Below, piece after piece: positions 5,856 through 6,608 of a DNA stretch of 64,000 nucleotides; the stretch's first letter is position 1; each line of letters begins with the position of its first letter. The translations under genes were made by a program, and so were the position numbers. Origin of the DNA: Convolutriloba macropyga (taxonomy: Eukaryota); contig NC_134481.1 of the NCBI RefSeq assembly GCF_964194025.1, positions 11,532,001-11,596,000 on the forward strand, given 5' to 3'. Under the pieces are notes generated by a model. That model searched no databases, was not told the DNA's origin, and saw only the letters and a program-made list of their open reading frames with translations.

Positions 5856-6608
5856 TTATGAAACTTTAATTTCATGACAAATGTCTCTCGCCCAATGTCT
5901 AACACAGTGATTGAAATGGTCCCTTCGACGGCTCCAGATTGTTGGATCAACTTCCTCGTAACCACTAACTAGGGACCAAATAAACTGCCCAGCTTGCCCA
6001 ATCATACCTTCAGTAACAACAGCGTGAACAGCAAAGGCTGGCTGGATTATGCGATCATCAGCAGTCCCAAGATGATATGACTTATGTTCGGTCAAATAAT
6101 GACCCTTTCGCTTCTTTGCACGTGTTTTAGAATCAACGGTTAGCAACTGAACTAGGGCATCGAATGATTTTATGCCATAAAAGTTCTGACTCCTTCGGGC
6201 AGTATAAGCAAATCACCATAATTTTGAGCCAGACAAAACGGCAGCTAATGATTCACCGCCCCCGTCAATGTGGGGTGCAGTATACCAGGGCCCACGAGCA
6301 GCAAGACATCCCTGTATAACTACCTTAAGCTTAAGATGATGAGAACAAAAGACACCTTGATTTAACTCAAATGTAATCGATTCTGAACTTTCTAAACCGA
6401 GATTGTTCCCATAACTGACTGCGCTAGTTATTCCAACTGTTCGGCTTCAATATTCCAGTCTTGACCAGTTTGTCGGACCACTTAAAATGTTCCTCCCAGT
6501 TTCACCGCGGATAACATAAGGCACCTTTGGGAAATCTTCTACGTTAAATGAATCGCGAACTTCTAATTTTTCCTACCCAAAAGTTCAAACGCACCAGTTC
6601 GTGCCAAA
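5856..6608 (-). pseudogene. JmjC-domain 2OG/Fe(II) oxygenase (KDM2/KDM7-like histone demethylase fold), antisense accessory gene of the env-bearing relic; two in-frame stops
   Basis: Manual translation in frame with ORF 5856..6146: ...FPKVPYVIRG...GCLAARGPWYTAPHIDGGGESLAAVLSGSKLW*F...GTADDRIIQPAFAVHAVVT. HxD at 6272-6264, distal His at 6026-6024, 2OG-binding Thr and Lys present. TGA at 6449-6447 and 6215-6213. Splice acceptor TTTTCAG ends at 6609. Confidence 0.8.

Follow-up and report, generated by a model that had tools for sequence, protein, structure and literature searches.

Captured chromatin proteins are known from several kinds of mobile elements. Chromoviruses are retrotransposons with captured chromatin domains, and captured chromatin modifiers are carried by DNMT-bearing retrotransposons and by TET/JBP-bearing KDZ transposons. 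Together with CopiaMBD, these elements resemble the case described here in the capture of a chromatin reader or modifier, but none of them carries a JmjC enzyme. CopiaMBD is a retrotransposon with a captured MBD chromatin domain (PMC6673714), and JmjC appears only as a host enzyme in the accessible part of a review that deals with chromatin and transposons (PMC9406493). The closest known case, as far as the accessible account goes, is that of the endogenised giant viruses of Amoebidium, which carry stand-alone KDM4-like JmjC genes proposed to avoid host silencing, their activity being inferred (PMC11244446). Suppressors of silencing encoded by transposons are illustrated by the VANC proteins of VANDAL transposons, described in excerpted sources as acting sequence-specifically on the DNA methylation of their own family (PMC6719617; PMC5735166). 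In its accessible portion, a 2019 review counts just three mechanisms of anti-silencing that transposons encode, each of them from plants, and finds this scarcity surprising (PMC6719617). In bdelloid rotifers, LTR elements carry enzymatic ORF3s that are common to different retroelement classes, according to the available part of the report (PMC5408684). Mobile-element-borne chromatin modifiers are thus known, and we could not find the JmjC enzyme class reported for retroelements. The literature was judged mostly from titles and abstract openings and covered Crypton and SET work thinly; Repbase, subscription journals and bioRxiv supplements lay outside its scope and may annotate such elements. 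A term search of the text and seven supplements at hand for a survey of env-bearing Ty3/gypsy elements found no mention of JmjC or jumonji (PMC13524379).

In Convolutriloba macropyga, one clade of env-bearing Ty3/Gypsy elements has, between pol and env, a slot that is kept for a stand-alone JmjC gene in antisense orientation, and the copy present in the window (the whole stretch of 64,000 nucleotides analysed here, positions 11,532,001 to 11,596,000 of contig NC_134481.1) is dead. Both the JmjC identity of this gene and its linkage to a retroelement can be held with very high confidence. As in the Amoebidium viruses, so far as these are described, the gene stands alone without reader domains as the cargo of a genomic parasite. 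The carrier there is a giant DNA virus and the gene is KDM4-derived and detectable by Pfam, whereas here an LTR retroelement carries a KDM7-like, highly diverged gene with a fixed antisense slot and cassette exchange. With the errantiviruses bearing F-type env, the carriers have in common the gag-pol-env order, LTRs, a tRNA-type primer site and what look like F-like env features; they differ from those in the accessible description by the extra antisense JmjC gene and by a macro domain at the end of pol (PMC13524379). Like the rotifer LTR elements, in the part of that work available, they draw on a pool of accessory enzymes traded between unrelated mobile elements, catalytically dead derivatives included, but the rotifer cargo is a GDSL esterase or a DEDDy exonuclease and here a JmjC oxygenase is carried alongside env. 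The likeness to VANC would be one of proposed role only, that of a transposon-encoded silencing suppressor, and no homology is claimed; VANC, as described in the excerpts, is sequence-specific, whereas the JmjC cargo has no visible targeting module.

The relic of the JmjC-fold 2-oxoglutarate/Fe(II) oxygenase gene lies on the minus strand at 5477..6676 (approximate ends), as delimited by tblastn with the natural unbroken ORFs of loci L002 and L003. It is antisense to the pol and env of its carrier and is broken by stops and indels. Its DNA identity to the unbroken relative L002 is 89%, and it matches an unbroken copy at another genomic locus with E 1.8e-108 and 74% identity, far above chance. 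A preliminary description had placed a JmjC gene at 5856..6608; the gene is there but extends more widely. That description had also counted two TGA codons to be read through. These stops are present, but the damage was understated: the frame used (5871-6635, minus strand) contains four stops, three TGA and one TAG, and about ten small indels, several of them frameshifting, lie between 6569 and 5571 of the relic. TGA readthrough was rejected because the breaks also include TAG and frameshifts. A contig from sequencing run X4, which may include the assembly's own source, is identical to the window over 6012-6303, so assembly error is ruled out for the breaks in that stretch.

The motifs quoted in the preliminary description were recovered in the same place on the minus strand. 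The metal and 2-oxoglutarate motif Thr-x-x-His-x-acid (6264..6281) comprises a Thr at 6279-6281 and H-I-D at 6264-6272. The Lys of a G-x-K-L-W motif is at 6222..6224, which by analogy with KDM2/7 we take to be the 2-oxoglutarate-binding position; a TGA stop occupies 6213-6215. The distal metal-binding His, within Q-P-x-x-A-x-H-x-V-x-T, is at 6024..6026 and occurs without exception in the 39 sequences aligned. The acidic ligand makes the motif HxD in the window copy and HxE in its family; HxD coincides with a short deletion there and is a peculiarity of the decayed copy and not a family trait.

A search of the host genome (1.18 Gb; 149 candidates scored) with the relic returned 110 matches at E<=0.001, a figure that does not equal copy number. 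Many of these matches have open frames of 350-500 aa and many others are broken; the relic is a decayed member of this dispersed family, whose coding regions lie in a single frame. H-x-E and the distal His are kept in all 20 open frames of at least 340 aa extracted from the fetched loci, the 2-oxoglutarate Lys being substituted in three of them, and 17 of the 20 have basic C-terminal clusters under a loose pattern. In the 39-sequence alignment Glu, Pro and distal His are invariant and Trp, Thr, the first His and Lys occur in at least 90% of sequences, the ligands being kept at a mean column identity of about 18% across the aligned JmjC proteins. A profile search of 1.84 billion proteins yielded 158 representatives, a distant subfamily among them; distant relatives on large ENA contigs form multi-copy, partly broken clusters. 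No relative was found in the viral contigs and prokaryotic genomes scanned. In the Atlas, the top unnamed cluster near the HxE JmjC is labelled mostly bacterial from 12 records, from which no transfer is inferred.

The PF02373 search proposed in the preliminary description did not detect the HxE family: Pfam gave no match for the window copy, for 11 own-genome ORFs or for 32 of 33 relatives, and protein P0137 had a sub-threshold match (E 2.8e-4). Sequence searches of the PDB with the window copy and the family gave no significant JmjC match, the repeat-protein matches obtained being helical noise; the best relevant solved structure for the window copy was ceKDM7A (E 0.69), and neither this match nor a further direct sequence comparison of the HxE family with KDM7 (E 2.2) was significant. 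A JmjC family invisible to Pfam is thereby exposed, which may have a new substrate specificity.

The identification as JmjC was borne out by structure prediction. The natural ORF L002 was modelled with AF2 (pLDDT 86), and Foldseek returned 433 matches at E<=0.001 with JmjC proteins in the top rows, the best being ceKDM7A (E 2e-9), PHF2 and PHF8. The HxE gene family is accordingly predicted to have the double-stranded beta-helix JmjC fold. With VIA-align, L002 scored Z 15.6 against PHF2 (rmsd 5.8, 252 aligned), 14.7 against ceKDM7A and 14.2 against KDM2A. The KDM7 subfamily (PHF2, PHF8, KDM7A/KIAA1718, ceKDM7A) and KDM2A are thus the best structural matches. JMJD5 was about level with KDM7 (Z 14.4, rmsd 3.6, 193 aligned), and TYW5, JMJD6 and FIH scored about 13, the lowest being 12.9. 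As JMJD5 lies within about one Z unit of the KDM7 matches, structure alone cannot separate demethylases from hydroxylases. The host has a KDM7-type gene of its own, which lies at a separate locus, contains introns, has the domains PHD-JmjC-JHD and shows no more than remote similarity to the HxE family; its T-x-x-H-x-acid, G-x-K and distal His align with those of the family, hhalign gave a non-significant 20% for the family against one of its exons, and PF17811 matches only this host gene in the genome. No Pfam match to PHD, JHD or CXXC was found in the unbroken HxE ORFs.

A second dispersed JmjC family, with HxD and P-x-G-W-x-H-x-V, was found among weak Cupin_8 matches and has 69 genome matches. 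Its homology to the HxE family is borne out by hhalign (97.3%, E 2e-11), and its matches to PHF2, KDM7A and PHF8 have E 1.6e-7 to 7e-7, compared with 0.04 for JMJD6; against PF02373 it gives E 4e-4 to 0.07, and JmjC_2 was above the cut-off in one of five. Four of four dispersed loci sampled from the 69 matches sit in the same pol-env slot of related elements, and HxD and HxE carriers are intermixed on the integrase tree. In each of four HxD genes a short intron (GT..AG, 70-96 nt) is predicted. This family also forms a tandem array on contig C2; its loci are L145-L148, L118 and L139-L144. By the structure matches and the sequence bridge that the HxD family offers, the nearest characterised homologues of the HxE family are KDM7/KDM2. 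The KDM7-type assignment of the preliminary description was therefore right as to the nearest relatives, but membership does not hold, since the family has HxE and not HxD ligands and lacks PHD and JHD. It further differs from KDM7/KDM2 by the absence of CXXC, by an identity of 10-15%, by falling below Pfam detection and by being mobile-element cargo. KDM2/KDM7 enzymes demethylate H3K9me1/2, H3K27me2, H3K36me2 or H4K20me1; the H3K9me2/H3K27me2 specificity named in the preliminary description would be no more than a candidate activity for this family.

The HxE protein is very probably an active oxygenase. That its substrate is not a histone is conceivable, though rather unlikely. The enzyme would then act on a host defence protein, for example on methyl-arginine of PIWI-pathway proteins, or on a protein of the element itself, serving counter-defence or replication support and not chromatin erasing. 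The Z scores of 12.9-14.4 for JMJD5, TYW5, JMJD6 and FIH agree with such an activity, as do JMJD4-like clusters among the Atlas neighbours of the HxE JmjC (0.93-0.94) and the lack of a reader domain, and the rapid turnover of the cassette described below would suit any arms race. The HxD family, however, is nearer to PHF2/KDM7A/PHF8 than to JMJD6 by five orders of magnitude, the gene is carried together with histone-type SET domains in some elements, and the loosely defined basic C-terminal clusters of 17 in 20 long frames also speak for a histone substrate.

The carrier of the relic is a decayed Ty3/Gypsy element with env, of which the 3' half is left on the plus strand (4104..10413), collinear with the L031/L032 element at 84-87% DNA identity. 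Its gag and nearly all of its pol are missing upstream of 4104, and no gag, protease or pol match was found in the 10 kb that precede the window, where a further env remnant occurs (L102, E 5e-84). What remains of pol, at 4104..4139 (+), is its final codons, which follow the C-terminal macro domain and align to L032:2231-2196. A broken env relic of the F-type class I fusogen-like kind lies at 7726..9918 (+), found by tblastn with the L031 env ORF; it is followed by a polypurine tract at about 10172-10183 (+), which precedes the first 230 bp of a truncated 3' LTR (10184..10413, +) that starts with TG and matches the 5' LTR of the L036 element. A distance of 1,050 bp separates the ATGs of the JmjC gene (6676) and env (7726), which stand head to head, in agreement with the divergence of about 1.1 kb reported earlier. 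The L031 env ORF has a signal peptide, an R-x-K-R site, a hydrophobic fusion-peptide-like stretch and a C-terminal TM segment. Its Atlas neighbours include Baculo_F/Fusion_gly at 0.93-0.94 with a weak recognition score; env had no Pfam or PDB sequence match, and its single-sequence model reached pLDDT 36, too low to be of use. In sister elements gag and the protease-RT-RNase H-integrase order are present, and the pol ORF at L032:2196-6605 encodes RT, RNase H, integrase and a C-terminal Macro domain (Pfam E 4.6e-5), a possible second counter-defence module.

The window contains another env-bearing Gypsy element at 49892-63057, with 563-bp LTRs 99.5% identical and a macro-like pol tail. The preliminary description took the relic for a second env-bearing element with a JmjC gene in the same position. 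The second element with its JmjC gene is there, but no counterpart was detected in the pol-env slot of the element at 49892-63057 with three profiles. Its pol-env spacer of about 1.9 kb has short antisense ORFs that are common to eight other copies at 94-97%; the ORFs possibly represent a different spliced cargo gene. Elsewhere the window holds a tandem array of 45-bp repeats (1-640), two long ORFs with one FLYWCH zinc finger each (21116-22981 and 25770-27089) and a host gene with few introns (38284-49424), presumably a Sec7-domain ARF-GEF of the BIG type by our reading.

Genomic context was read over at least 10 kb for each of 49 HxE loci, taken from the top of the match list and then by down-list picks covering the subfamilies. 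At 30 loci the JmjC gene is antisense between pol and a probable F-type env in Ty3/Gypsy elements. Nine others have pol only, one has env only (another gag adjoins), six are in SET-plus-recombinase-like elements and three fall in no class (L126, L128, L138). At all 39 loci with a flanking pol, the JmjC gene is antisense, downstream of the integrase and convergent with it; none of nine control stretches, which were non-random, had both genes. Paired LTRs were found in all eight Gypsy elements read across both flanks (six at 99.4-99.9%, two older), and all four elements examined end in TG..CA, are flanked by a duplicated 5-bp target and have a TGG primer site. Element membership, which had been deduced from position, is thereby upheld: the window is collinear with an env-bearing LTR element, 40 of the 49 loci lie beside pol and/or env, and the JmjC copies co-occur with pol/env within paired LTRs and are not an unlinked host pseudogene. 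On one metagenome contig, a single case, an env homologue (E 1.7e-27) is head to head with a JmjC gene (L103); five of six contigs of the distant subfamily were too short or had no visible neighbour. Some JmjC copies occur in tandem clusters (L127, L128, L126), L126 beside the gag of a different retrotransposon.

Selection on the gene was estimated from substitution rates. The dN/dS ratio is 0.38 between the window copy and L002 and below 0.5 in nine of 14 close JmjC pairs, the other five giving 0.66-3.0 with few changes each; env is tighter, at 0.13-0.16 between sister elements. Synonymous sites are saturated in six of seven between-subfamily JmjC pairs, for which the alignment filter biases dN low. 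Passive hitch-hiking, in which the gene would be a captured host fragment without benefit or a host pseudogene lying nearby, is largely refuted and retains very little probability. Many JmjC copies are broken and some young elements have none, as hitch-hiking would have it. Against it, HxE-family frames stay open over about 400 aa at 35-45% mutual identity with fixed ligands, synonymous divergence between subfamilies is saturated, and position and orientation are fixed, with two JmjC families in one slot; the host KDM7-type gene is moreover a separate PHD-JmjC-JHD locus with introns. A nearby host pseudogene in particular was rejected.

The JmjC gene belongs to an exchangeable cassette. By alignment of the sister elements, a cargo cassette of about 2.6 kb with the JmjC gene spans 4770..7355, with approximate boundaries and no strand assigned. 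Sister elements L062, L065, L069 and L072 match the window at 82-87% on both flanks and not at all inside the cassette; L031/L032 and L062 are 93-94% identical in the flanks with 2.6-2.85 kb between them that cannot be aligned. In most pairs of elements with env proteins 92-95% identical, JmjC is only 35-42% identical, and in elements with a common cassette env is 96% and JmjC 93%. These alignments show that a JmjC cassette of about 2.7 kb is swapped by recombination between elements 92-94% identical on both flanks. Fast evolution of one resident gene was rejected as the cause of the mismatch, because the non-coding DNA of the cassette cannot be aligned either and cassette-sharers agree in both proteins. 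The cassette is also common to SET-plus-recombinase-like DNA elements. In a FastTree phylogeny with a midpoint root, the JmjC genes of both SET-recombinase families fall within those of Gypsy elements, with support of 0.998 and 0.964; four short JmjC rows (e35, e64, e68, yrB58) and three short env rows were left out of the trees.

Two families of elements with SET, zinc-finger and recombinase-like genes carry the JmjC gene (L038:2218-5663, L039:5015-9028, L095, L096, L099, L060, L061, L127); a 179-bp satellite follows one of them. Their SET domains were confirmed by Pfam, and the best solved matches are SUV420H (E 8e-17, clear) and SETD8 (E 5e-8, marginally ahead of NSD1). SUV420H and SETD8 are H4K20 enzymes, and such SET partners tie the JmjC cargo to histone lysine methylation. 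No Pfam match to a tyrosine recombinase domain was obtained in the SET-bearing elements; their R..K..H-x-x-R-like motifs, read by eye, we take to be tyrosine-recombinase-like (Crypton-like). Upstream of the HxE gene, a co-oriented second JmjC-like ORF without metal ligands occurs in eight loci (L073, L120-L124, L134, L138). The occurrence of this paralog in a sub-lineage indicates that the JmjC fold can persist in a non-catalytic role, possibly that of a reader or decoy.

The same elements bear on a reading that we consider improbable, in which the protein is a chromatin enzyme or binder for integration or self-restraint. It would open or mark target chromatin for the integrase, or set one H4K20 state with its SET partner, the ligand-less paralog being a methyl-lysine reader or decoy. 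The H4K20 methyltransferases matched by the SET partners and the ligand-less paralogs of eight loci accord with this, and capture of chromodomain and MBD by retrotransposons has been read as integration targeting in the accessible part of one report (PMC6673714). JmjC is instead a separate antisense unit with no integrase fusion, and no longer fused forms of the HxE JmjC were found among 7,999 candidates scored, which is weak evidence.

That the JmjC cargo is an anti-silencing histone demethylase is the reading favoured here, by a modest degree of confidence. The gene would be transcribed from the opposite strand of the provirus, from a promoter region between JmjC and env, into a spliced mRNA. 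A predicted splice-acceptor-like YTTCAG stands shortly 5' of the ATG in ten of 12 own-genome HxE starts and was not seen before that of L002, from the window's own subfamily, or of L011. The protein would enter the nucleus by its basic C-terminal tail and demethylate lysine with the help of Fe(II) and 2-oxoglutarate; its ancestor would be a KDM7-like enzyme, whose reader domains have been lost. Its most likely target would be repressive histone methylation (H3K9, H3K27 or H4K20), and the element would thereby escape silencing. HxE accompanies the trimethyl-capable KDM4/5/6 enzymes, and the Glu ligand is a hint that the range may extend to trimethyl marks. H4K20 is a substrate of PHF8, PHF2 and DPY-21. 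The protein has no PHD, JHD or DNA-binding domain by which it could visibly be directed to its own copies. The recent insertion of the element at 49892-63057, which has no JmjC gene, indicates that the gene is not needed in cis; the protein could work in trans, and the lack of the gene in young sister elements would then be explained. A broader version of the demethylase reading is tentative and more doubtful than not: an old retroelement lineage would maintain a modular slot for counter-defence against chromatin silencing, to be filled anew out of a KDM7-derived pool (HxE, HxD and ligand-less) shared with SET-recombinase elements, with the HxE form erasing trimethyl repressive marks, possibly on H4K20.

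If this broader version is true, the JmjC gene would be, as far as we found, the first enzymatic anti-silencing factor of an animal retroelement. A JmjC gene that occupies a fixed slot, is under selection and changes hands like an effector cassette opens the question to direct tests, and the family offers the material: a small protein of one domain, numerous natural variants and, within a single genome, related elements that either have JmjC or lack it.
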